Shown: positions 11,570 to 23,357 of the stretch, piece after piece
Layout of the letters: each line of letters begins with the position of its first letter
How positions within the stretch are numbered: position 1 is the stretch's first letter
Assembly (NCBI GenBank): GCA_964354495.1
Contig: CAYHAA010000009.1
Span: 60,001 to 92,000 of the forward strand
Direction: 5' to 3'
From: an uncultured archaeon
GTDB taxonomy: Archaea; Asgardarchaeota; Thorarchaeia; Thorarchaeales; Thorarchaeaceae
DNA length: 32,000 nucleotides
Notes under the pieces: generated by a model
What the model saw: only the letters and a program-made list of their open reading frames with translations
Told to the model about the DNA's origin: nothing
Database searches by the model: none
Position numbers and translations under genes: made by a program

Positions 11570-13306
11570 CTACTCGCGATACGCTTTGCGTACTTCTTTG
11601 ACAACAAGGCCGGGCAGCTCTTTCACAGACCTGATAGGATAGACTGATGCACCAGCTCTCTCCAGGGCCTGATGAGTCTTGGAGGCTCGAGAGCTAGTTC
11701 CAGAGCCTATATGGAAAAGAAACAGCTTGTGGCCCCTCTTGGAAAGTGACTCAACAGCTCCCACCATCTGTTTCCAGTTCGACACCTCAGCATCGGTTAT
11801 GAGAAGAACAATGGATTCTTTCTCCGCGCTTCCGCACACTTCGCTTATCTTGCTTACAGGCGCAACAGTGCCTCCGCCTTGGTAGGCTAGTAGGACTCTT
11901 TCGACTGGAGCTCTCTCTCTTGTCCATTCGCATACTTGCACACCGTCAGAGAAGTTGATTGCAGCCACTCTGCAGCCTCGCCGAAATGCGAAGTCCATCG
12001 CAGCAAAAGCCGAAACAAGCGCAGTATGGTAGTCGCCAGAGATCGTGGTGGGACGCATTTCCCAAGTCATTGAAGCTGATGAGTCTATGACCATCAACAT
12101 GTCAAGAGTGGTCTTGGAGACTTTGGAGTCAGTTGTCACATAGAGTTGCCATTTTCTTGTTGAACGATTCGGAATGAGTACAGGGAATGCCTGAAGAGAC
12201 TGGACAATATCGAGCTCTTCCAAAGGGTCACCTAGCCTCCAGACCTCAGGCACCAATGGAACTGCCCCGGTCAATCTGGAGGAGTCTACTTCAAATCGAA
12301 TCGCTCCGTATGCTTTTGCACGGTACCAGAAACGAGTCCAGGCGGCCCTCTCCGATCCGACACCAGCTGTCAGGAAGACACCCTGCAAATCCTCAATGTT
12401 TCCGCCCAGCTGTTCGACATCAATAGCAAGCCGCTCCATCTCCTCCTCGAGGTTTGATGAATCGGCTCCCTCCAAGCACTTTCGTGCCAAGTCGCCGTTT
12501 CTGACCTCGACAGGACTTCCCATTATCCCGTCTACATCCAAGGGGACGGCAACGACTTTCCGCGAACCGTCCACTCCCTCTTGTTGAACTTCATTTGAAG
12601 CTCCTGAATAGGCACCAAGCAAGCTTTCGTCATCGGGCATCCACTTACATAGTATCTCTGCGACCTTTTCGCAAGAAGAAGGCCACCGATGCTCAAGTTC
12701 GACTGATGCGCGTGCAATGCGCACTATCTCAATCGCCGCCTCGAAAGTGCGCTGTTCTACATCGATCGTCGGAGGAATTGGAAACCCCCACATGACCCTA
12801 TAGCAAGAAACAATCAGTTTCCAGACGTCACTGTGCTCCTGAGTCCTCATCGCGGAATCATGAATGGAAGAAATGATGCGACTATGGGTGAGAGTCAGAA
12901 ATCTTCTCAACAGACTCGAGTCCACGACAAAGTCCGCAAAGAGATTACAGACAAACATAGCTGCGGCATCATTGACATGCTTCCGTGCAGCTGCAAACAT
13001 TCTCCCATTCATCACGCTGTCATACGGACACAGAAGATAGTGCTGAATCTCGTGGTGGCAGATGGACCTAAGAAAAGAATCGACCTCTTCGATACTCATG
13101 TGCAGAGGTACTCCAGCTAGATTAAGATGCACAGTCCAGCTGCTAGAGTCGATGTAGAAGAAACTGGAAACTCCAGGAATGTACTCAATCTCAGGCTCTG
13201 GAAGTGGAGGATGATAGAAGTCAGAAACAGCTAGAGCCCATGCTCTGGCCGCTGCAGAGCTGTACCCATTCTCGTCAGAAGACTTGCTAGCTGTCACATC
13301 CATCAT
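11570..13306 (-). CDS. HExxH putative metallopeptidase domain + C-terminal VWA (MIDAS) protein, MoxR partner
   Basis: CHHEIQHYLL (HEIQH at 13040-13054) followed by NLFADFVVD; MIDAS parts VIDSSAS, GGGT and ITDAE. Confidence 0.8.
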   Translation of the reverse strand: MMDVTASKSSDENGYSSAAARAWALAVSDFYHPPLPEPEIEYIPGVSSFFYIDSSSWTVHLNLAGVPLHMSIEEVDSFLRSICHHEIQHYLLCPYDSVMNGRMFAAARKHVNDAAAMFVCNLFADFVVDSSLLRRFLTLTHSRIISSIHDSAMRTQEHSDVWKLIVSCYRVMWGFPIPPTIDVEQRTFEAAIEIVRIARASVELEHRWPSSCEKVAEILCKWMPDDESLLGAYSGASNEVQQEGVDGSRKVVAVPLDVDGIMGSPVEVRNGDLARKCLEGADSSNLEEEMERLAIDVEQLGGNIEDLQGVFLTAGVGSERAAWTRFWYRAKAYGAIRFEVDSSRLTGAVPLVPEVWRLGDPLEELDIVQSLQAFPVLIPNRSTRKWQLYVTTDSKVSKTTLDMLMVIDSSASMTWEMRPTTISGDYHTALVSAFAAMDFAFRRGCRVAAINFSDGVQVCEWTRERAPVERVLLAYQGGGTVAPVSKISEVCGSAEKESIVLLITDAEVSNWKQMVGAVESLSKRGHKLFLFHIGSGTSSRASKTHQALERAGASVYPIRSVKELPGLVVKEVRKAYRE

Positions 13307-13315
13307 TATAGCATC

Positions 13316-15025
13316 CTAAGATTCGATATGTTTCTGAAGTTCATCCTTGAGTCTGACTGCCTCAGTCCCGCCAGATATCTCCAAGAAGACTGCAGACTCA
13401 GGAGAGTCGCCTGTGACGTAGATCACAAGGGTCAGACCATCTATTCTGAGAGCTTTTCTCTTTGGAGGAGTCAGCGTTTCCTTTAGCATTGGAGTGAGTT
13501 TTGGATACTTCAGTCCGATGGTTGTCCAGAGCTCTTGCCACTGCTCGAACGTCAACTCAAACTGGGTGAGTGTCAATCTGTGGAGCGCATCGGAAACTTG
13601 CTTCAAGAGCACGCTTCTATTTGGAAAGTCGGTATTGTACATGAGTTCATCATGTGTCTTCGTAAGCTGTTCAATATCTCGATCCTTAATCCCACGTTCT
13701 ATTCTCTGCACTGTGATCACATATCGGGGTTTCTTGAGCTCTTTGGCGAACTCTGAGTAATCGAGTTGTACAAGCAGATCGCTCTTGGCCATCTCCTTGA
13801 GTTGTTCGAATGACTCCTTTGACTCACTCCCATGCTTCAATCGCGCTATGATCTCAATGGCAGGAGCTCTCTGAGCATAACGAGAAGTCGCCAGCTCAAC
13901 AAGATGTTGAGTGAAGGCATAGAGGTCACCATAATAGGGAGACCGCTCGGACTCATCTCTCACAAACTTTGTTCTATGCCAGAAGACAAGCGGAGCCAAG
14001 GACTTGACAATCTCTATGCTCACTTCATGAGACCCAACAAGCCAAGCAGTGGCTTTTGAATAACGATTCAGGTCCTTTGCTGCCCGAACGCTGAGAGGCA
14101 CAATCACCTTGTTACAGACACTCTTTGCAGTATTGAAATGGCATCCATCACAGAGGCCAGTGGCGACAGTTATGCCCGATGACTGGCTCTTGTCTACTCT
14201 AATACATGCTCCGAACTCACGCACCAGAGACCGCATGTATTCGGAAGCCTCTGGTGACACAGGTATCTTGTCCGCGAGATTCCAAATTGTAAGGAGGTTC
14301 TCTTCTGTCAAGATCGCAGGTACTTGCCAGAGTTCATCAAAACCGAATAGGCGTTCATCACGAGAAGAAAGTATCAGTTCCAAGTCACTCACGGTTGGCA
14401 TGGTAATTGGAACTGCCAAGCCAAATCTGTCTAGAAATGGAGGCCCAATATCGAAGGTTCCAGCATCAGCAGGATTGAGCGTGGCATAGAGGCTGTACTC
14501 ATCGCATCTCTTGACCTCATCATAATACTTGACCTCGCCTTCAGCGAGAAGAGAGAGCAGTATGTTCTGAGAGTGAGGCGTTAAACGATTGACTTCATCG
14601 ATGATCTTCCAGAAACCTGTGATGAACGAGCGCCATACAACGACCTCTAATCCCTCTTTCATGAGAGGGCCAGGACGTAGTGTGGCCACCATCTTTTCTT
14701 CAGTGAGTTGAGGGTGACCTCTGAGAATACCATCCTCAATCTCCTCAAGGCTCTTTCCGGTCATCATCCGACCTAGGATCTTGACCAATGTCGTCTTTCC
14801 ACCACCGTGGCCACCAATGAGCAGCATTGCAGAACGGGGCACTAGCGCATTGAGGACACATGAACCTACTATCAAGGGGATTCGTGTGGTCTGTGTCTTG
14901 TCCTTCGCTCCAGTGGTGGTGTACTTAATCTCCAAATCCGTAGAGTGCACAAAGAGACCTCTGCTCTCTACTGTAGTAATAACGCTTCTAACCAGTTCTT
15001 GAAGTTTCGATGATGGAGAGCTCAT
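13316..15025 (-). CDS. MoxR-family AAA+ ATPase with long C-terminal extension
   Basis: Walker A GGHGGGKTT, Walker B IIDEVNR, QNILLSLLAEG, ATLNP, PFLDRF; 9 bp upstream of the VWA gene. Confidence 0.85.
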   Translation of the reverse strand: MSSPSSKLQELVRSVITTVESRGLFVHSTDLEIKYTTTGAKDKTQTTRIPLIVGSCVLNALVPRSAMLLIGGHGGGKTTLVKILGRMMTGKSLEEIEDGILRGHPQLTEEKMVATLRPGPLMKEGLEVVVWRSFITGFWKIIDEVNRLTPHSQNILLSLLAEGEVKYYDEVKRCDEYSLYATLNPADAGTFDIGPPFLDRFGLAVPITMPTVSDLELILSSRDERLFGFDELWQVPAILTEENLLTIWNLADKIPVSPEASEYMRSLVREFGACIRVDKSQSSGITVATGLCDGCHFNTAKSVCNKVIVPLSVRAAKDLNRYSKATAWLVGSHEVSIEIVKSLAPLVFWHRTKFVRDESERSPYYGDLYAFTQHLVELATSRYAQRAPAIEIIARLKHGSESKESFEQLKEMAKSDLLVQLDYSEFAKELKKPRYVITVQRIERGIKDRDIEQLTKTHDELMYNTDFPNRSVLLKQVSDALHRLTLTQFELTFEQWQELWTTIGLKYPKLTPMLKETLTPPKRKALRIDGLTLVIYVTGDSPESAVFLEISGGTEAVRLKDELQKHIES

Positions 15026-15254: not shown

Positions 15255-16325
15255 TTGGGCGAAGAAAGAACGTATGCAGAAGCAATCACTCTGATAGAAC
15301 CAGAGAAACAACCTACAGAACGGTTGAGTCAATACTCAGTGGTAACCAGAGCGATGGAATATCACACGCTGATGAATCGCTATGGTGATCTGAAGAGGGA
15401 CCTGGTTGATGCAGGATTGCGATTTGGCGGCCGAGTTCTTCTGATCGGATCCCCGGGAACAGATTTCGAAGCTTTTGCGCATTACCTGAGTCGGGAAGTG
15501 CCACTCAAACTAGTGCGATTCAGGATGGACATTTTACTGAATGAGGTCAAAAGTGGAGCTGAGATACTGAGAGTCGGATTCGAGTTCGCAAGGAGGAATT
15601 CTCCGACTGCCATGTATGTGGAGAAATTGGAGTCTGTTTCGCCGGCCAGCAGCGAACGCTCAGCAGTCCTTCAGGATGAGCTGAGCCGAACAGGATGGGA
15701 TGGGGAAGAAGTCTTGGTCATCGCATCCACGACAAGGCCGCAGGATGTTGACACTGATGTCCTTTCTACATTCGATAGGGTCTTTGTCATAGAGGGAACA
15801 ACACTTGAAGATCGAGTACGAGTGTTTGAGCAGACATTGAAAGGCCACGAGAATATCGACCCAACCGTGGTAGCGGAGTTGACTGATGGCTGGGGGTACT
15901 CCAGCACGAAACAACTTGCTGTGAGCCTTTTCATGACCGAGACCGAAGAAGGTGGTCAGATTCCCAGAAACAAGATCGAGGAGATGATAGAGAAGAGTGG
16001 CGTCATGCCGCTCAACAACCCCAGATACCTTGAATCAGTCATACGGCGCACTGGAGGAGCAACGAAACACAAGATAGAGAGTCTGCGTACTGAGTATCCT
16101 GATGACTTCCTAGATCAGCTCTACCTCATGGCGGCGGGAGAAGACTATTCAGCAACTCAGAGAGCCATAGAGGTCTTGAATGATGGAATGCCGTTGTCCA
16201 AGGAGGACCGCGAGGTACTCTCCAGATACCCGTTCCTTCTGAATGGAACGCCAGAAGACAGACTGACAAGGCTACTGAGAGCAAAGAAGAGCAATGACAG
16301 ACTTCAGAGGATCATGGGACGTTAA
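15255..16325 (+). CDS. Degenerate classic-clade AAA+ domain protein (predicted pseudo-ATPase)
   Basis: VLLIGSPGTDFE (Walker A position), AMYVEKLE (Walker B position), VIASTTRPQDVD...FDR (SRH position), AELTDGW (lid). TTG start with GGGGT upstream; start uncertain. Confidence 0.7.
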   Translation: MGEERTYAEAITLIEPEKQPTERLSQYSVVTRAMEYHTLMNRYGDLKRDLVDAGLRFGGRVLLIGSPGTDFEAFAHYLSREVPLKLVRFRMDILLNEVKSGAEILRVGFEFARRNSPTAMYVEKLESVSPASSERSAVLQDELSRTGWDGEEVLVIASTTRPQDVDTDVLSTFDRVFVIEGTTLEDRVRVFEQTLKGHENIDPTVVAELTDGWGYSSTKQLAVSLFMTETEEGGQIPRNKIEEMIEKSGVMPLNNPRYLESVIRRTGGATKHKIESLRTEYPDDFLDQLYLMAAGEDYSATQRAIEVLNDGMPLSKEDREVLSRYPFLLNGTPEDRLTRLLRAKKSNDRLQRIMGR

Positions 16326-16340
16326 TCAGGGGACCGGGAT

Positions 16341-19300
16341 TTGGGTAATATCAGAGCCTACATTGAATCGGCAAAGTTGGACAACTTCCTCTCATTCTAC
16401 TCAGGAAGAGTCGTCTTCGACAGAGGACTGACTGTCCTAGCTGGGCCAAATGGATCAGGCAAGACATCCGTCTTCCATGCTCTGAAGTTCGCATTGGGCT
16501 CAAATCAACGAGAGAATAGATACAGTAAATGGAGCGATTTCATCAGACATGGTGCAAGTACTGCACAAGTCGAAGTCATTGTCAAGATTGATGGTCAAGA
16601 CAGGAAGTTCCAACGGAAGATTGACCGTGATGGTATCCCTAGAGCATACGTAAATGGTCGAAGAGTCAAGGCCGCTGAGCTTAGGCAGATAGTTCAGTCA
16701 TTCGGACTGGATACGGACAATCCTCTAGTCTTCATCCCTCAGGAGAGAATCAACGCAGTACGAGATATGGATCCGTACGAAGTGAGAAAGCTAGTTGAAG
16801 AGGGAACTGGTCTTGATGTCCTTCGAGACAGGATAATCCTTCAAGAGACTGAGGTCGTTCAGAGTCGACAACGACTGACAGCAGCTCTTGCAGAATCGAA
16901 GTCAGTAGAGAGAGAGCTTGAACTGCTTCAACATGACCTCACCCGTCTTGAAAAGAAGAGGGCCCTCCAAGAACAGGAGAAGGCTCTCGAAAAAGACCTG
17001 TTGTGGGCATCTCTCGATGACTTGACTGAGAAGATCGATTCTATCAAGACGGAGATTGACGGGAAGGAGGAAGGTCTCGTATCGATACTTGACGAACAGA
17101 CACTTGTTCAATCAGAGGTCGCTAGCAATGAACAAGAGACTGAAAGCGTTGAAGCAAAGCTCTCGAATCTGCAGATTGAAACCGGCCGCATCGATGCCAA
17201 GATCGAAGAAGAGGAACGTAATCTGGCGCGTATCGAGGGAGATTCTCAGAGACAGGTAAGTGAACTCAAGCAACTTGAGAAGGAAATCAAAACAGAAACG
17301 AGAAACAAGGAAAAACTCCAAGAAGATATCGAACGCATTACATCCACCAAAGAAGACACCATGGAGAAGCAGCGTCAACTCCGTACGTCACTTCAAACCA
17401 TAGAGGATGAACGAAATCACCTCAGAGATGAATTGGAGGCCTTTGCTGACTGGAACACCAAGAGAGCAGAATCCCATGGAAGATACAAAGCCCTTCAAGC
17501 GGAGATTGAAGGGAAAGACCTACTCCTGCGAAGCGTGAGAGAGAGACTGCAAGTAGAGGAAGCAGAGCTTCAGTCGATAGAGAGCAAGTGGTCACATACA
17601 TGGTCTGCAATGGAAAAATCCGATGAGAAGGAGCTGGCAAAGAAGAAAGGCCAGCTAGAGAGAGAGATTGCTTCTCTGAATGAAGAACGATTCCGGCAGA
17701 GCAGTATAGTATCCCAACTCCAGAAGGATATTGATGAGCTCAATGTGCGACTCTCCGAAACATCCAAACGTATTCCTGATACAGTCAAGAAACTGAAGGA
17801 TGCAATTGCAGAGCACAAATTGGCGACCGTCACAGGCCCGCTTATCGAGCTCTTCACCGCGGATGACTCCATAGCCTGTGCAGTTGAGGCTGTGCTGCCT
17901 GATAATATGACACTAGCCTTCATAGTCACTGATGAATCAGACTTTCAGATACTTCAGAAGCTCAGAGACAATGCTGAGGCGCCATCCCCACTGATTCTGC
18001 TGAAGCCTTCAGGAGATCCGGGTGAACGCCCAGCACTGAAGACCGAAGCTGGTGTAGAAGGATGGCTCTGGGATAGGCTCAACATCGACGATGAAACCAA
18101 GAAGCTTCTGCGAAGAGCTATCGGAGACTTCGTGCTCACAAAGAATGTTCGATCTGCAACGCGTCTTGCAACAAAGGAGGGACTCAGGGGGGTCTCCGTG
18201 GACGGGCATGTCATTATTCCAGAGGCTGACAAGATTGTAAGCAATCCAAAGATTCTGCCATCAGGAATGGTCTCTACTGCTCCCCTCCAGTCGCGTCTCT
18301 CCAGTGCAGACAAAGAATTGTTTCTAGCCAAAAAGCGAGTCACCGACACCATGATGGCCTTGGATGAACTCACAAATCAAAGAGAGGAAGTACTGGATCT
18401 GCTGAGTCAGATGACCCGATGGAGTGGAACCTGGGAGCGACGAAGAAGCCTGCTTGAAACTATCCCTGTACAGGAAGAGAGAATTGCCGCGCTCGATGAA
18501 GAACTGAAGGGGCTTCAAGCAGAGCTGGGTAAATCAGAGAGGGAACTCAGAAAACTCGACAACACCCAGCCTCCTGAACGAAGTAGACTGATTGGGCAAG
18601 ACTCAGCTCTTCGTATTAAGCACCGACAACTCCAGGCAGACCTCACAAGAGTGGACGCTCGAGCGAACGCAGCTGAACGGGATGAAGAGATCAAGCGTCA
18701 GGAGCTGAAGAGGATTGTTGAGAATGTCACCATGCTGACAAACAGCCTCGACGAGTTGCGTGCGGAGATCCTAGAATCAAAGGGTGTTGCCTCAAAAATC
18801 CTTCAGAAGATAGAAGTTCTGAGGGCAAGCCAAGAAGAGGCCAGGAACCAGAATGGCGGGCTTGCTGAGGAAATGGGACGACTCAAGGAGACCAATCGCT
18901 CTCTAAGGGCCAGAATTGTGGAACTCAACCTTGTCATCAAGGAACAAAAGATACAGGTCCTTCAGGCCAAGCGACAATTAACGAACATGGAGTATGATCT
19001 CGAGAACCTCGAGCGGGACCTTGATGGACAAGAGAGACCAGATGTAGTGAAACCCCTAGAACAGGTAAGGAATGAACTTGTGAAGCTTCGCCACGTCCTG
19101 GATGATTATCAAGATGTATCCGAGAGTGTGGCGCACACTGAAACTCAACTGAAGGGACGGCTGACTACCCTCGTTGAGAGAGTGACAGAGCTGCAAGAGG
19201 AATTGGAAGAAGCGGAGTCTACTGTCAAGGATATACGAGAGCAGTATCATAATGGAATGAATGAGACCTTGCGCAATGTTGAGAAGAATGTGAATGAAGT

Positions 19301-19718
19301 TCTAGGAAGTGTTCAATTCCCTGGAAGTGTTCGTTTCGAACTTGCGCTCAGAGAGGGAGATTATGGTGTGGAGTTCAAATCAAGAATCAAAGCAGAAGGC
19401 TTTGGTGATGTCAGTGCGGGGTCTGGCGGCGAGCGATCTCTCATCGCCATCTCGTTGATTCTAGCCCTTCAAAGGTATAATCCTGCGCCAGTCTATGTAT
19501 TGGATGAGGTTGACACATTCCTCGATGCTACGAACACTGAACTTGTGAGCAGACTTTTCCATGATGCGTCCCGCAGAAGTCAATTCATCCTTCTAACGCC
19601 CGCCAAAAGCACTCACCTTCTGAAGCACGCTGACAAGATACTGGGCATCGTTTCACCCAATGGCGTAGAACCATCTGTAATAATCGAGAGCCCGAAGTTC
19701 AAGGGACAACAGGAGTGA
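16341..19718 (+). CDS. smc: SMC-family ATPase, SMC5/6-like
   Basis: GPNGSGKT, Q-loop region DNPLVFIPQE, two long coiled coils around a hinge (GPLIELF...AVEAVLP...AFIV), SGGERS, VLDEVD, QFILLTP; 1125 aa. Confidence 0.93.
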   Translation: MGNIRAYIESAKLDNFLSFYSGRVVFDRGLTVLAGPNGSGKTSVFHALKFALGSNQRENRYSKWSDFIRHGASTAQVEVIVKIDGQDRKFQRKIDRDGIPRAYVNGRRVKAAELRQIVQSFGLDTDNPLVFIPQERINAVRDMDPYEVRKLVEEGTGLDVLRDRIILQETEVVQSRQRLTAALAESKSVERELELLQHDLTRLEKKRALQEQEKALEKDLLWASLDDLTEKIDSIKTEIDGKEEGLVSILDEQTLVQSEVASNEQETESVEAKLSNLQIETGRIDAKIEEEERNLARIEGDSQRQVSELKQLEKEIKTETRNKEKLQEDIERITSTKEDTMEKQRQLRTSLQTIEDERNHLRDELEAFADWNTKRAESHGRYKALQAEIEGKDLLLRSVRERLQVEEAELQSIESKWSHTWSAMEKSDEKELAKKKGQLEREIASLNEERFRQSSIVSQLQKDIDELNVRLSETSKRIPDTVKKLKDAIAEHKLATVTGPLIELFTADDSIACAVEAVLPDNMTLAFIVTDESDFQILQKLRDNAEAPSPLILLKPSGDPGERPALKTEAGVEGWLWDRLNIDDETKKLLRRAIGDFVLTKNVRSATRLATKEGLRGVSVDGHVIIPEADKIVSNPKILPSGMVSTAPLQSRLSSADKELFLAKKRVTDTMMALDELTNQREEVLDLLSQMTRWSGTWERRRSLLETIPVQEERIAALDEELKGLQAELGKSERELRKLDNTQPPERSRLIGQDSALRIKHRQLQADLTRVDARANAAERDEEIKRQELKRIVENVTMLTNSLDELRAEILESKGVASKILQKIEVLRASQEEARNQNGGLAEEMGRLKETNRSLRARIVELNLVIKEQKIQVLQAKRQLTNMEYDLENLERDLDGQERPDVVKPLEQVRNELVKLRHVLDDYQDVSESVAHTETQLKGRLTTLVERVTELQEELEEAESTVKDIREQYHNGMNETLRNVEKNVNEVLGSVQFPGSVRFELALREGDYGVEFKSRIKAEGFGDVSAGSGGERSLIAISLILALQRYNPAPVYVLDEVDTFLDATNTELVSRLFHDASRRSQFILLTPAKSTHLLKHADKILGIVSPNGVEPSVIIESPKFKGQQE

Positions 19719-20374
19719 GAGTGACGAAAGAGAAGAGCCTTGCAGCAAGAGTCTACGAGATAGTACAGGCGGCTCGTTCTGGAGAGATTGATCCACTTGA
19801 ACTGCGATTGACAGACTCATACAGAGAACTGAAGGAACTGGCAGCAAGGATTGACTGTAGGCTTGACATCGATGAGATGTTGAATGAGGTTCTCGGGGCG
19901 AAGGTAAACCGTGTTCAGGAACTGGCGAGAGTTCTTGCTTCTCCAGAGATCTACGTTGCTCGTTTGAAGGAGAAATCAATGAGGGAAATTGCCAGACTCT
20001 TGGTGCAGAGGCAGCCAGTTGTTATAGGTCATCTTGAGCGATCCTCACTCAACGAGTCTCTTGACAGAATTGTTCAGTTCATAGATGCAATGACTCGTGA
20101 GGCACCTCAAGACCTGGTGCCAAAGATGAGCGGACTTCCGAATGGTTTCACTCTTGAAACTGAAGATACTGTCTTCATGGAAGACCTTGAGAAGTTCCTT
20201 ACAAGAATTCCTCAAGATGGAAAGGCCATCTTTGACGATATCATCGAGAGTGCTGAGCTTGATATCTTTCTCAAGCATTTCCTCTATGTCATAATCCTTG
20301 TATCCCAAGGACGTTTATTGTATAATCCTGCCACACGACAATTACAGAGGCCACTTTTTCCCGAGGCAACATAG
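19715..20374 (+). CDS. scpA: Kleisin (ScpA/Nse4-like)
   Basis: N-term EIVQAARSGEIDPLELRLTDSY resembles ScpA (LxxLxRxGEIDPWDIDI); C-term FDDII...FLYVIILVSQGRL fits the kleisin C-terminal wHTH; GTGA overlap with the smc stop. Confidence 0.75.
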   Translation: MRVTKEKSLAARVYEIVQAARSGEIDPLELRLTDSYRELKELAARIDCRLDIDEMLNEVLGAKVNRVQELARVLASPEIYVARLKEKSMREIARLLVQRQPVVIGHLERSSLNESLDRIVQFIDAMTREAPQDLVPKMSGLPNGFTLETEDTVFMEDLEKFLTRIPQDGKAIFDDIIESAELDIFLKHFLYVIILVSQGRLLYNPATRQLQRPLFPEAT

Positions 20375-20454
20375 AAACAATGGCAATCAATAGCTGCAGG
20401 GAACAGGTGCTCATTCTTAGGGAGGACCAATGCAGAGGCGGTGTGTTTCGACAT

Positions 20455-21804
20455 TCACGCAGACACCTCAAGAAGAAGCTCGCTGGGTGCTTCAAGGGAA
20501 TGGTTGTTTCCATCTGCAAGTCGGGAGTGCAACTTCAGTTTGGCAATAGCTGCAAAGCCCAGAAGTGAAACGACCACTAAGACAACAGACGCGCCAATGA
20601 AGGGAGGACCTGTCGAACCAGCAGTTTCAGCCCATACTCCGCCAATTGCCATTCCCATTACTTGTACAGCCGTAAATACGACATTAAAAAGAGAAAAGAC
20701 ACGACCGCGGAACCTATCTTCTACGAGCGTCTGCATCAATACACTGAGAGGTATGTTCAGAATCACATCAACTGCACCGATCATCGCCCAAGCAAGCAGT
20801 ACGCTCAAGAAATCAAACGCTATGACCAGTGCGAAGACACCAATGCCAGCTAGAAGACCAGCAAACGCAATGAGATACAATGGTCTCTCGATTTTGCTCT
20901 TGCGGCTTAGATAGACAGCCGCTGTAGCCCCTGTGGCAGCGCCAGCACTGAGTATCAATCCTATCTGAGCAGGTCCAAGCCCCAATGCGCCTTCGAAATA
21001 TGGCATCAGGAGTGCATTGAGTATTCCAGAGGAACCTGCGAGTAGCACTGCAAACACAAACAGGAATGAGAGAACTGCATTTCCTATGACATAGCGGCCG
21101 CCCTGAACTATCTGGTCCCGTAGTGATTCGTGCTCTACATACTTTCTCCGTGGGCTGAGATCAGTCGATATTCCGCGGAGAGCAATGGCTGATAGAATGA
21201 AGGTCATCGACGTGATGGCAAAGGCAAGGAAATAGTCGGGAGCAAGGAGCGCAATCAGGATACCTCCGAGAGGAGGAACGACTAGCTGAACAACCTGGAA
21301 AGTCATCTGAGATAGAGAGGATGCTGCGACTAGTTCGTCGCCTTCCACCAGATTGGGAATAGATGCGCTCCTTGCTGGAAAGAACCATGCATTTGCAGTT
21401 GCATGGATAAGCGTCAAGAGATACACCCAATAGATGGGGGGAATGAACGATGGAAAATGGATTGTTACAGGTATCAGTATAATTGCAGCAGCTCGAATAA
21501 TATCTGATGCAATCATGATTCTCTTGCGATTCCAACGATCAACATATACACCAATGAAGCCAGCAAACACGACAACAGGCAACACTTCAACCATGGCGAG
21601 TACTGCCATTGCCATGGTAGAACCTGTTAGGTCATAGGCATAGAACAGAAGGGCAAGGGCAGATATTGCAGTGCCAATATTCGATACAAGTTGTCCTAGC
21701 CAGAGGCGTGAGTAATCAGGATGGCGTAGAGCGGCCCCAAAGCCACTCGGCCGTAGTTCATCTGCAGCACCCTCAGGTTGCTGGTCAATCAACGATTCTA
21801 CCAT
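20455..21804 (-). CDS. MFS transporter (drug:H+ antiporter / macrolide-efflux-like)
   Basis: LWLGQLVSNIG, motif A GVYVDRWNRKRIMIASD, QTLVEDRFRGRVFS, about 12 hydrophobic segments; GAGGTG SD. Confidence 0.92.
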   Translation of the reverse strand: MVESLIDQQPEGAADELRPSGFGAALRHPDYSRLWLGQLVSNIGTAISALALLFYAYDLTGSTMAMAVLAMVEVLPVVVFAGFIGVYVDRWNRKRIMIASDIIRAAAIILIPVTIHFPSFIPPIYWVYLLTLIHATANAWFFPARSASIPNLVEGDELVAASSLSQMTFQVVQLVVPPLGGILIALLAPDYFLAFAITSMTFILSAIALRGISTDLSPRRKYVEHESLRDQIVQGGRYVIGNAVLSFLFVFAVLLAGSSGILNALLMPYFEGALGLGPAQIGLILSAGAATGATAAVYLSRKSKIERPLYLIAFAGLLAGIGVFALVIAFDFLSVLLAWAMIGAVDVILNIPLSVLMQTLVEDRFRGRVFSLFNVVFTAVQVMGMAIGGVWAETAGSTGPPFIGASVVLVVVSLLGFAAIAKLKLHSRLADGNNHSLEAPSELLLEVSA

Positions 21805-22422: not shown

Positions 22423-22926
22423 ATGAACGAGTATGCAGTGCTTGTTAAGCTCCTCACACGAACAGGAACACCCATTGGTGCAAGCATAGATGACATGCTC
22501 GATGCACTCGGTCTCCCTGAGGATGCCGGGAGGCATGTTCTATTCCAAAAGCTGAGTAACCTTCATGAGAGGGTCAGACCACTGGGTCTTGTTATCAAGC
22601 ACAATCCAGTATCAGGAGTCTTCTATCTTGACACCTTCAGCGAGGTTACGCTTCCTCAAGATGGTACCACACTGCCAGATAGGCTTGCGGCAACTCTTCT
22701 TATTGTAATGACACTGGCCTACCAAGATGGTGGCTGGGTGAATGTCGAGAGAGTCAGAGAGTTCAGGAAGAAGGCGCTGCAGGGTGTGATGGTCGATCTT
22801 CGAGAACTGCAGAGTCAGGGCTATGTTGATTTGGATCAGGACAAGAAGCGAGTACGCCTTGGAACAAAAGTGCCATTCGAGATCGACTACGAGGCATTCT
22901 TCAAAAACCTAGCAGAGAGTCAATAA
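22423..22926 (+). CDS. Kite-family tandem winged-helix protein (ScpB/Nse1/Nse3/MksB-like)
   Basis: 167 aa with two wHTH-like halves. LHERVRPLGLVIKHNPVSGVFYL fits the WH-A wing; LAATLLIVMTLAYQDG...LRELQSQGYV fits ScpB WH-B (ETLAIIAY...L...GLI). Lies 2 kb from smc-kleisin on the same strand. Confidence 0.65.
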   Translation: MNEYAVLVKLLTRTGTPIGASIDDMLDALGLPEDAGRHVLFQKLSNLHERVRPLGLVIKHNPVSGVFYLDTFSEVTLPQDGTTLPDRLAATLLIVMTLAYQDGGWVNVERVREFRKKALQGVMVDLRELQSQGYVDLDQDKKRVRLGTKVPFEIDYEAFFKNLAESQ

Positions 22927-22997: not shown

Positions 22998-23357
22998 ATG
23001 TCCCACAGACGTTCTCTTCGATTTTCACAGTCTACCTGCCCAGTCTGTGGAGGCAAGGAAGTGGCCCGCGATGACCTCAAGGGAGACCTTCTTTGCACTA
23101 ACTGCGGACATATCGTGACCCGTACCGAATCGAGAAGTGTTGGTAAGTTCGATATCGCTCAACACCTCAAGCGAAACGGGAAGATGACCTTCCCGAGCTT
23201 GATTGAAGTCACTGGAGCCTCTGATGACAAGCTCTTTGGTGTGCTCCAAGGCATGGAGAGCATGGAACTCGTTGAACAGATAACAGGACAATACACTCTC
23301 ACAAAGAAAGGACAGAGATGGTACCGTCAAAGACTGGGACAGGAGTGGGGATACTAA
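22998..23357 (+). CDS. TFIIB-type Zn ribbon + winged-helix protein
   Basis: CPVCGG...KGDLLCTNCGHIV matches the TFIIB Zn-ribbon pattern; the C-half ends in LVEQITGQYTLTKKG, a typical wHTH wing. Confidence 0.75.
   Translation: MSHRRSLRFSQSTCPVCGGKEVARDDLKGDLLCTNCGHIVTRTESRSVGKFDIAQHLKRNGKMTFPSLIEVTGASDDKLFGVLQGMESMELVEQITGQYTLTKKGQRWYRQRLGQEWGY

Follow-up and report, generated by a model that had tools for sequence, protein, structure and literature searches.

Eukaryotes encode cohesin, condensin, and SMC5/6 as SMC complexes, and most prokaryotes encode one SMC complex. The eukaryotic SMC5/6 holocomplex comprises Smc5-Smc6, Nse4, Nse1/Nse3, Nse2, and Nse5/6, with roles in repair and in the handling of replication or recombination intermediates or episomes. 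A gene that probably encodes the ATPase subunit of a second, "SMC5/6-related" SMC complex of Asgard archaea is located at positions 16341 to 19718 (forward strand) of a 32,000-nucleotide stretch of DNA, here called the window, from an uncultured member of the Thorarchaeales (GenBank assembly GCA_964354495.1, contig CAYHAA010000009.1, positions 60,001 to 92,000). The product of this gene is referred to below as P0001.

The "SMC5/6-related aSMC" proteins were first defined by Yoshinaga and Inagaki in 2021 (PMC8665677), mostly from TACK and also from Asgard archaea, where they often occur beside a canonical Smc. Van Hooff, Raas, Tromer, and Eme (10.1101/2024.01.07.573240) described a pair of SMC complexes in TACK and Asgard archaea, with an operon of an SMC, a kleisin, and a kite gene for each; in the same work, Nse4 and Nse1/3 group with the second of these archaeal sets. 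The protein class is therefore already known, and the window is a well-documented Thorarchaeota example of it rather than a discovery.

P0001 shares with these published archaeal proteins its occurrence as a paralogue beside canonical Smc-ScpAB in an Asgard genome and the gene order SMC, kleisin, kite, and it differs from them in nothing essential; the genome also encodes a canonical Smc complex, and the kleisin and KITE-like genes that go with P0001 lie near it. The published table includes a Thorarchaeia genome, GCA_004524565.1, which is credited with two SMC5/6-related SMCs, no other SMC, and no Nse4-related kleisin (10.1101/2024.01.07.573240). We found in that genome an orthologue of P0001 with 77% identity, located in the same operon. 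The full-length SMC genes of the genome number exactly two: a canonical one and this orthologue, which belongs with P0001 to the group that we call clade A. The orthologue is very probably among the two SMC5/6-related SMCs counted.

An Asgard SMC clade apart from canonical Smc

P0001 (1125 amino acids, TTG start) is encoded by a single open frame and has the full SMC parts list, namely, Walker A, Q-loop, signature, Walker B with the catalytic glutamate, a hinge, and two long coiled-coil arms. Pfam recognizes SMC_N (136 bits) and, at residues 497 to 610, SMC_hinge (41 bits; cutoff, 22.5). The N-terminal half of the ATPase head (residues 1 to 175; 16341 to 16865) carries DNFLSF (residues 14 to 19; 16380 to 16397), which includes the clade word NFLSF, followed by the Walker A motif GPNGSGKTS (residues 35 to 43), R60, and DNPLVFIPQE (residues 126 to 135; 16716 to 16745), which we assign to the Q-loop because Q134 is invariant across the clade. 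The hinge domain (residues 497 to 690; 17829 to 18410), delimited by Pfam, alignment, and AlphaFold2, contains AVEAVLPDNMTLAFIVTDESDF (residues 514 to 535; 17880 to 17945) and VSVDGHVIIPEAD (residues 618 to 630; 18192 to 18230). The C-terminal half of the head (residues 950 to 1125; 19188 to 19715) carries the signature SGGERS (residues 1028 to 1033), PAPVYVLDEVD (residues 1048 to 1058) with the Walker B motif VLDE and the D-loop, and QFILLTP (residues 1081 to 1087; 19581 to 19601), which is followed by a two-residue insertion. All eight motif strings quoted in a sequence-only reading of this DNA, which had proposed SMC5/6-type rather than canonical signatures, are present in this frame.

The same motifs proved to be diagnostic when an alignment of 15 P0001-type proteins from four Asgard families (A1) was compared with an alignment of 11 canonical Asgard Smc proteins (A2). 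The N-terminal motif is NF(L/M)(S/T)(F/Y) in A1 versus GFKSF in A2, the Q-loop region is DNxLVFxPQ versus GYNIVxQG, the signature is SGGE(R/Q)S versus SGGEK(A/S), and the C-terminal motif is Q-x5-P-x-KS with a two-residue insertion versus QFIV(I/V)S(L/H). Residues N15, F16, G35, N37, G40, K41, R60, and Q134 in the N-terminal head half and S1028, G1030, D1055, E1056, Q1081, and P1087 in the C-terminal head half are invariant in A1, and GPNGSGKTS, Q134, SGGERS, and LDE1056 are invariant or nearly so in the clade, as befits a bipartite ABC head. In the hinge, A1 has "VTLxGxxI..." in place of the "EGDxxExxGxMTGG" of A2, and GRASFIPL is also lost; G622 is the sole glycine of the GX6GX3GG motif retained in P0001 and in all clade members, while the full motif is present in 11 of 11 canonical Asgard Smc proteins. 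The absence of the canonical hinge motif, read at first from the one sequence, is thus clade-wide. This motif has been described as GX6GX3GG in eukaryotes and GX5GGX3GG in prokaryotes, being absent from Smc5 and partial in Smc6 (Alt et al., PMC5290277). Clade A proteins are 1117 to 1161 amino acids long, about 60 amino acids shorter than canonical Asgard Smc (1187 to 1223 amino acids), and the SMC5/6 chains of solved structures are 1091 to 1114 amino acids long.

A profile search of 1.84 billion cluster representatives, of which the best 150 were considered, showed the same separation. The top 37 representatives scored at least 388 bits (388 bits being a 232-amino-acid fragment and the others scoring at least 466 bits); all 37 lack the glycine motif, and the N-terminal motif is of the clade type, NF(L/M), wherever our script could read it. 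At 382 bits and below, the representatives are mostly canonical SMCs with the word GFKSF or NFKSF and the glycine motif, along with a few fragments that still show the clade pattern. The named clade members are all Asgard (Thor, Promethearchaeota, Hel, Odin, and Frey), and no TACK members were found among the best 150 representatives; a contig scan for related loci was made with a pattern that reached Asgard loci only. These motifs mark a discrete Asgard-wide SMC clade, apart from canonical Smc. Three shorter proteins, P0188 (835 amino acids, from Candidatus Freyarchaeum deiterrae), P0208 (982 amino acids), and P0268 (633 amino acids), ranked amid canonical Smc in the representative search; they have a clade-type N terminus (NFMSY or NFMTF), lack the glycine motif of the hinge, and may represent reduced versions of this paralogue.

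P0001 scores 307 bits with TIGR02169, the NCBIfam equivalog model for archaeal-type Smc, whose cutoff is 729 bits. Other proteins with an ABC-type head joined by coiled coils were considered by comparison with family models and rejected: ASRP (142 bits; cutoff, 300), arcadin-4 (40 bits; cutoff, 860), Rad50 (models at 68 bits or less; cutoffs, 700 to 1087), RecN, and JetC/MukB (JetC, 26 bits). Unlike these families, P0001 has a true SMC hinge.

The canonical Smc of the source assembly, which is 97.7% complete, is encoded on another contig (C3) and scores 846 bits with TIGR02169; ScpA and ScpB are encoded next to it (C3:9276-14033). P0001 is only 23% identical to this protein. When the long open reading frames of the genome were searched with the N-terminal head of P0001, two SMCs were found, P0001 itself and the canonical one, and so the genome has one clade A SMC gene and one canonical Smc with its own ScpAB. 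The two complexes would share their architecture and ATPase motifs, a kleisin homologous to ScpA, and a predicted cap contact resembling that in 4I99. They differ in that P0001 falls below the equivalog cutoff, shares 23% identity, has other diagnostic motifs and a hinge without the glycine motif, and lies outside the canonical clade, and in that the ScpA and ScpB of this genome are encoded beside the other SMC. The assembly also encodes an Mre11-like protein (438 amino acids) followed by a short Rad50-like protein (693 amino acids) at C1:48576-51970; the latter was not detected by the N-terminal head of P0001 at an E value of 1e-3.

Two head-domain trees were built. The first, inferred from concatenated head halves with IQ-TREE (LG+C20+F+G4), contained Asgard rows only (28 of clade A and 11 canonical) and split clade A from the canonical clade B with support of 92/92 and 95/97 across approximately 2.9 substitutions per site. 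Two genomes in this tree, the source assembly and G006, hold both paralogues. For the second tree, of 60 rows, 30 diverse canonical representatives and the short Rad50-like protein of the source genome as an outgroup were added. With the root on Rad50, all 41 canonical Smc proteins formed one clade (SH-like approximate likelihood ratio test [SH-aLRT], 95), within which the Asgard canonical Smc proteins were nested deep in the canonical radiation, and clade A (SH-aLRT, 88) lay outside it, on the Rad50 side. A head-domain tree had been suggested as a check on the SMC5/6-type assignment; the separation from canonical Smc held in the 60-row tree of clade A, canonical Smc, and Rad50. Judged by its TIGR02169 score, its 23% identity, and its position outside the sampled canonical Smc proteins, P0001 is not a canonical Smc. 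It is likely an old paralogue of canonical Smc, and the same genome also holds the complete Smc-ScpA-ScpB operon.

A kleisin and a KITE-like partner

The gene directly after the SMC gene (19715 to 20374, forward strand; GTG start) overlaps the SMC stop codon by 4 nucleotides, encodes a protein of 219 amino acids, and is conserved in this position in Thor, Loki, Baldr, and Hod loci. The protein has no Pfam match at all, Nse4_C included, and scans of every member of its family and of the KITE-like family described below gave no Nse4, ScpA, Nse1, MAGE, or ScpB match. The two best matches of the 219-amino-acid family profile in the PDB are the C-terminal winged helix of Pyrococcus furiosus ScpA (E values, 0.0056 and 0.034). 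By hhalign, the family aligns with Asgard ScpA over 187 columns with a probability of 92.5% (E value, 4.9e-7), with cross-controls below 1%.

The AlphaFold2 model of this protein (predicted local distance difference test [pLDDT], 79) has a helical N-terminal domain, a disordered linker, and a C-terminal winged helix. The three top Foldseek matches of the model come from two Smc5/6 holocomplex entries and from condensin Brn1. VIA gave a Z score of 8.3 to the ScpA C-terminal domain of 4I99 (4i99_C; root mean square deviation, 1.9 over 61 residues) and of about 7 to chains of the Smc5/6 complex, so that the fold scores to ScpA and to the Smc5/6-complex chains are tied. VIA does not name these chains; from their residue ranges we infer that they are Nse4. 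In ESM features, the protein is nearest to a Bathyarchaeota cluster (0.92), 18% of which has Nse4_C, followed by a eukaryotic cluster (0.83), 76% of which has Nse4_C, and by ScpA (0.81), and a shape search listed both Nse4 and ScpA clusters. These sequence and fold comparisons support the assignment of the 219-amino-acid protein as a kleisin that is homologous to ScpA and, in ESM features, nearest to the Nse4-type kleisins.

Complex prediction with this kleisin and the two head halves of P0001 scored 0.72, versus 0.00 for the best control. Of 80 solved complexes, 58 reach the mark of 0.72, as do 2 of 110 mismatched pairs; at least 45% of contacts are common to the runs, and the pLDDT of the partner is at least 49. 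In the predicted contact, the kleisin winged helix (residues 173 to 205) lies on SMC residues 1088 to 1123 and 34 to 39, as a classical cap contact, and this predicted cap adjoins QFILLTP, the clade-specific motif, together with the insertion behind it. Because an SMC head with a kleisin is a textbook pair, the passing score may reflect likeness to solved structures.

A second candidate subunit, a winged-helix protein of 167 amino acids, is encoded at 22423 to 22926 (forward strand), 2 kb downstream of the kleisin gene; in many related loci, this gene directly follows the kleisin gene. This protein, which the genome encodes only once, differs from ScpB, and its family aligns weakly but colinearly with Asgard ScpB over 139 columns (hhalign E value, 5.3e-4; probability, 31%; cross-controls below 1%). 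Weak leads connect it to DUF4194 (ESM, 0.79; 4 of 43 members, with a best E value of 0.0018) and to MAGE, and the family profile matched generic winged helices only in the PDB. A RING domain such as that of Nse1 is not expected, since the protein is too short. On the basis of these profile comparisons, we regard a KITE identity as likely.

Affinity to eukaryotic SMC5/6

Reciprocal scoring against the sequences of solved structures served as a proxy for a tree with eukaryotic SMCs. The clade profile A1 scored 162 to 164 bits with SMC5, 114 to 148 bits with SMC6, and 182 to 214 bits with SMC1-4, whereas the canonical profile A2 scored below 77 bits with SMC5, 78 bits with SMC6, and 360 to 503 bits with SMC1-4. 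As a single query, P0001 detected human SMC6 (54 bits), human SMC5 (52 bits), and yeast SMC6 (44 bits) through residues 6 to 413. The N-terminal 470 amino acids of the canonical paralogue detected no SMC5/6 chain at an E value of 0.01 or less and matched Rad50 at 37 bits.

These scores bear on a rival explanation in which P0001 arose by an Asgard-specific duplication of canonical Smc, evolved fast, and has no particular relationship to SMC5/6, the motifs in common (NFL, the lost hinge glycines, and the TP ending) being convergent or ancestral and the position outside canonical Smc being a long-branch artifact. A fast-evolving copy of canonical Smc would be expected to lie farther from SMC5/6 than its parent does; P0001 lies closer, which counts against a mere fast duplicate.

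Several observations weigh against an SMC5/6 kinship or are neutral toward it, and most of them would suit a fast duplicate. In raw score, P0001 is more similar to Pyrococcus Smc (115 bits) and to SMC2 (97 bits) than to SMC5/6 (52 to 54 bits) or Rad50 (51 bits), and each half of its head is likewise more similar to canonical sequences than to SMC5/6. A1 also scores higher on Rad50 (85 bits) than A2 does (below 77 bits), and since A1 is the more diverse profile as well, its lead on SMC5/6 may in part be generic. The C-terminal control with the canonical paralogue gave no discrimination, as SMC5/6 lay outside the best 60 matches; a PDB search with a 32-residue query around QFILLTP, which was too short, gave no match. 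The D-loop region PAPVYVLDEVD agrees with canonical Smc in the alignment, a resemblance that the sequence-only reading had already conceded. The head-domain trees hold no eukaryotic sequences, and the 60-row tree had a single long Rad50 outgroup and a quick search. The named clade members are Asgard alone, as noted above, and the KITE-like protein has no Pfam match to Nse1, MAGE, or ScpB. In the published analysis, monophyly of all eukaryotic SMCs was not excluded in the approximately unbiased (AU) test (p-AU, 0.317; 10.1101/2024.01.07.573240), and the deep placement is consequently unsettled even in published work. Finally, because the published table counts two SMC5/6-related SMCs in GCA_004524565.1, where one of the two is canonical, the published clade boundary may be wider than that of clade A.

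The hinge also belongs among these observations. An AlphaFold2 model of residues 455 to 705 (45 sequences; pLDDT, 81) has the general SMC hinge fold. Foldseek placed cohesin, Geobacillus, Thermotoga, and Pyrococcus hinges first (E values, 5e-10 to 1e-8) and the Smc5/6 hinges lower (E values, 2e-6 to 1.5e-5), and the VIA Z scores were 15.3 for SMC1, 13.7 for yeast Smc6, and 13.2 for Schizosaccharomyces pombe Smc5/6. The modeled fold thus matches all SMC hinges about equally and is too close for discriminating SMC5/6 from SMC1-4. It had been expected that a noncanonical hinge would support the SMC5/6-type assignment; this was borne out by half, because the glycine motif is lost while the general fold is kept, and the predicted structure does not favor the Smc5/6 hinges.

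Against a fast duplicate stand the detection of SMC5/6 by P0001 and not by its canonical paralogue, the opposite of what a fast offshoot should show, and the tree in which the Asgard canonical Smc proteins lie deep inside the canonical radiation and clade A lies outside it. Moreover, the clade comes with a kleisin of its own, for which Nse4_C clusters are the nearest, and with a separate KITE-like gene, and two independent published phylogenies recover SMC5/6-related archaeal SMCs, with Asgard members included (PMC8665677; 10.1101/2024.01.07.573240). We therefore consider the fast duplicate unlikely. The SMC5/6-type interpretation put forward from the sequence alone gains support from TIGR02169, the trees, the reciprocal scores, the kleisin, and the 77%-identical orthologue in the published data set, and the kinship of P0001 appears to lean to SMC5/6.

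Gene cluster, proposed mechanism, and implications

The order of genes conserved in Thor, Loki, Baldr, and Hod loci is an AAA-like gene (approximately 356 amino acids), the SMC gene, a gene for approximately 215 amino acids, a gene for approximately 170 amino acids, and often a zinc ribbon winged-helix gene. In the window, the first of these (15255 to 16325, forward strand; Pfam AAA E value, 1.4e-7) ends 15 nucleotides upstream of the SMC gene and encodes a catalytically degenerate AAA+-like protein of 356 amino acids. A homologue was detected in 93 scanned loci (Thor, Loki, Baldr, Hod, and Hermod); wherever checked, it immediately precedes the SMC gene. None of the aligned orthologues has the Walker A lysine (GSPGTDFE) or the Walker B DE (MYVEK), and a helical C-terminal region (LDQLYLMA...YPFLL...AKK) is strongly conserved. 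The last gene of the cluster (22998 to 23357, forward strand; Pfam Zn_Ribbon_TF E value, 2.7e-6) encodes a protein of 119 amino acids with a TFIIB-type zinc ribbon and a winged-helix-like tail, and it follows the KITE-like gene in 24 related loci. Neither the pseudo-AAA+ nor the zinc ribbon neighbor was found in the parts of the two-complex study and its supplements that we consulted (10.1101/2024.01.07.573240). Tentatively, the Asgard SMC5/6-type module may extend beyond three genes, and the pseudo-AAA+ and zinc ribbon proteins could be subunits not yet described, such as a loader or a regulator of the ATPase in the role of Nse5/6.

Between the kleisin and KITE-like genes, the opposite strand carries an inserted gene for an MFS transporter (20455 to 21804, reverse strand; MFS_1 E value, 6e-30), which splits the SMC operon of this window. 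Other Thorarchaeota have the MFS gene behind the KITE-like gene or lack it in the cluster. An open reading frame at 20441 to 20914 (forward strand) was rejected as a gene, as it sits within the well-supported MFS gene of the other strand. Back-to-back with the SMC operon, at 11570 to 15025 (reverse strand), are a MoxR-type AAA+ gene (AAA_5 and AAA_lid_2) and a gene for a 578-amino-acid protein with a weak VWA match; in both relatives inspected (L011 and L013), the MoxR-type gene is likewise found there.

Such a pair, together with the weak links of the KITE-like protein with DUF4194 (the JetB/MksE family) and the generic PADLOC matches of P0001 to mad3 (111 bits) and LmuB (75 bits), could be taken as signs that P0001 is the motor of a defense-type SMC system (Wadjet/Mks/Lamassu-like) directed against foreign DNA rather than serving chromosome maintenance. 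The PADLOC scores, however, are far under the 307 bits of TIGR02169, with JetC at only 26 bits, and the kleisin, the KITE-like protein, and the zinc ribbon protein have no PADLOC match. The conserved cluster contains no JetD- or LmuA-type nuclease gene, P0001 has a true SMC hinge, and the module is vertically conserved across Asgard classes in a constant gene order, unlike patchy defense islands. A defense function is therefore very improbable, and the SMC5/6-related complex remains our preferred reading of the cluster.

Compared with eukaryotic SMC5/6, the proposed Asgard complex has an SMC of similar length (approximately 1100 amino acids) with a hinge lacking GX6GX3GG and with a sequence affinity that has no counterpart in the canonical paralogue, a kleisin nearest to Nse4_C clusters in ESM features, and a likely partner of the KITE rather than the HAWK type. 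It differs in that the eukaryotic complex is a heterodimer of two SMCs (kappa and nu), while a single SMC gene is found here; in that the KITE-like protein has 167 amino acids and no RING; and in that the D-loop region of P0001 is canonical-like and its hinge fold is no closer to the Smc5/6 hinges. No Nse2, Nse5, or Nse6 was recognized by Pfam among the genes of the cluster, to which this search was confined. Because there is a single clade A SMC gene, we presume a homodimer.

By analogy with characterized SMC complexes, two copies of P0001 would dimerize through the hinge, and ATP would be sandwiched between the Walker A and B motifs of one head and the SGGERS signature of the partner head. 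The C-terminal winged helix of the kleisin is predicted to sit on the head cap (residues approximately 1088 to 1123), and its N-terminal helices would bind the neck of the partner head, thus closing a ring. The KITE-like protein would bind the kleisin, and ATP-driven cycles might clamp or extrude DNA. From the intact motifs, the conserved synteny, and the one predicted interface, we infer that the complex may be an ATP-driven homodimeric ring with its own kleisin and KITE-like protein.

What the window adds to the published picture is a set of diagnostic motifs, evidence for a kleisin in an unannotated gene of 219 amino acids, a C-terminal motif bordering the predicted cap, and a conserved pseudo-AAA+ neighbor; neither the kleisin assignment for Thorarchaeota nor the dead AAA-like neighbor was found in the portions of the literature compared. 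That such proteins may inform the split between SMC5/6 and SMC1-4, as the sequence-only reading had also supposed, is an idea already published. Since a canonical Smc-ScpAB and an SMC5/6-type complex occur together in Asgard archaea, the SMC split would predate eukaryotes, which is likewise a published conclusion. For structural and biochemical studies, the Asgard complex would provide a simple form of SMC5/6 that is probably a homodimer.

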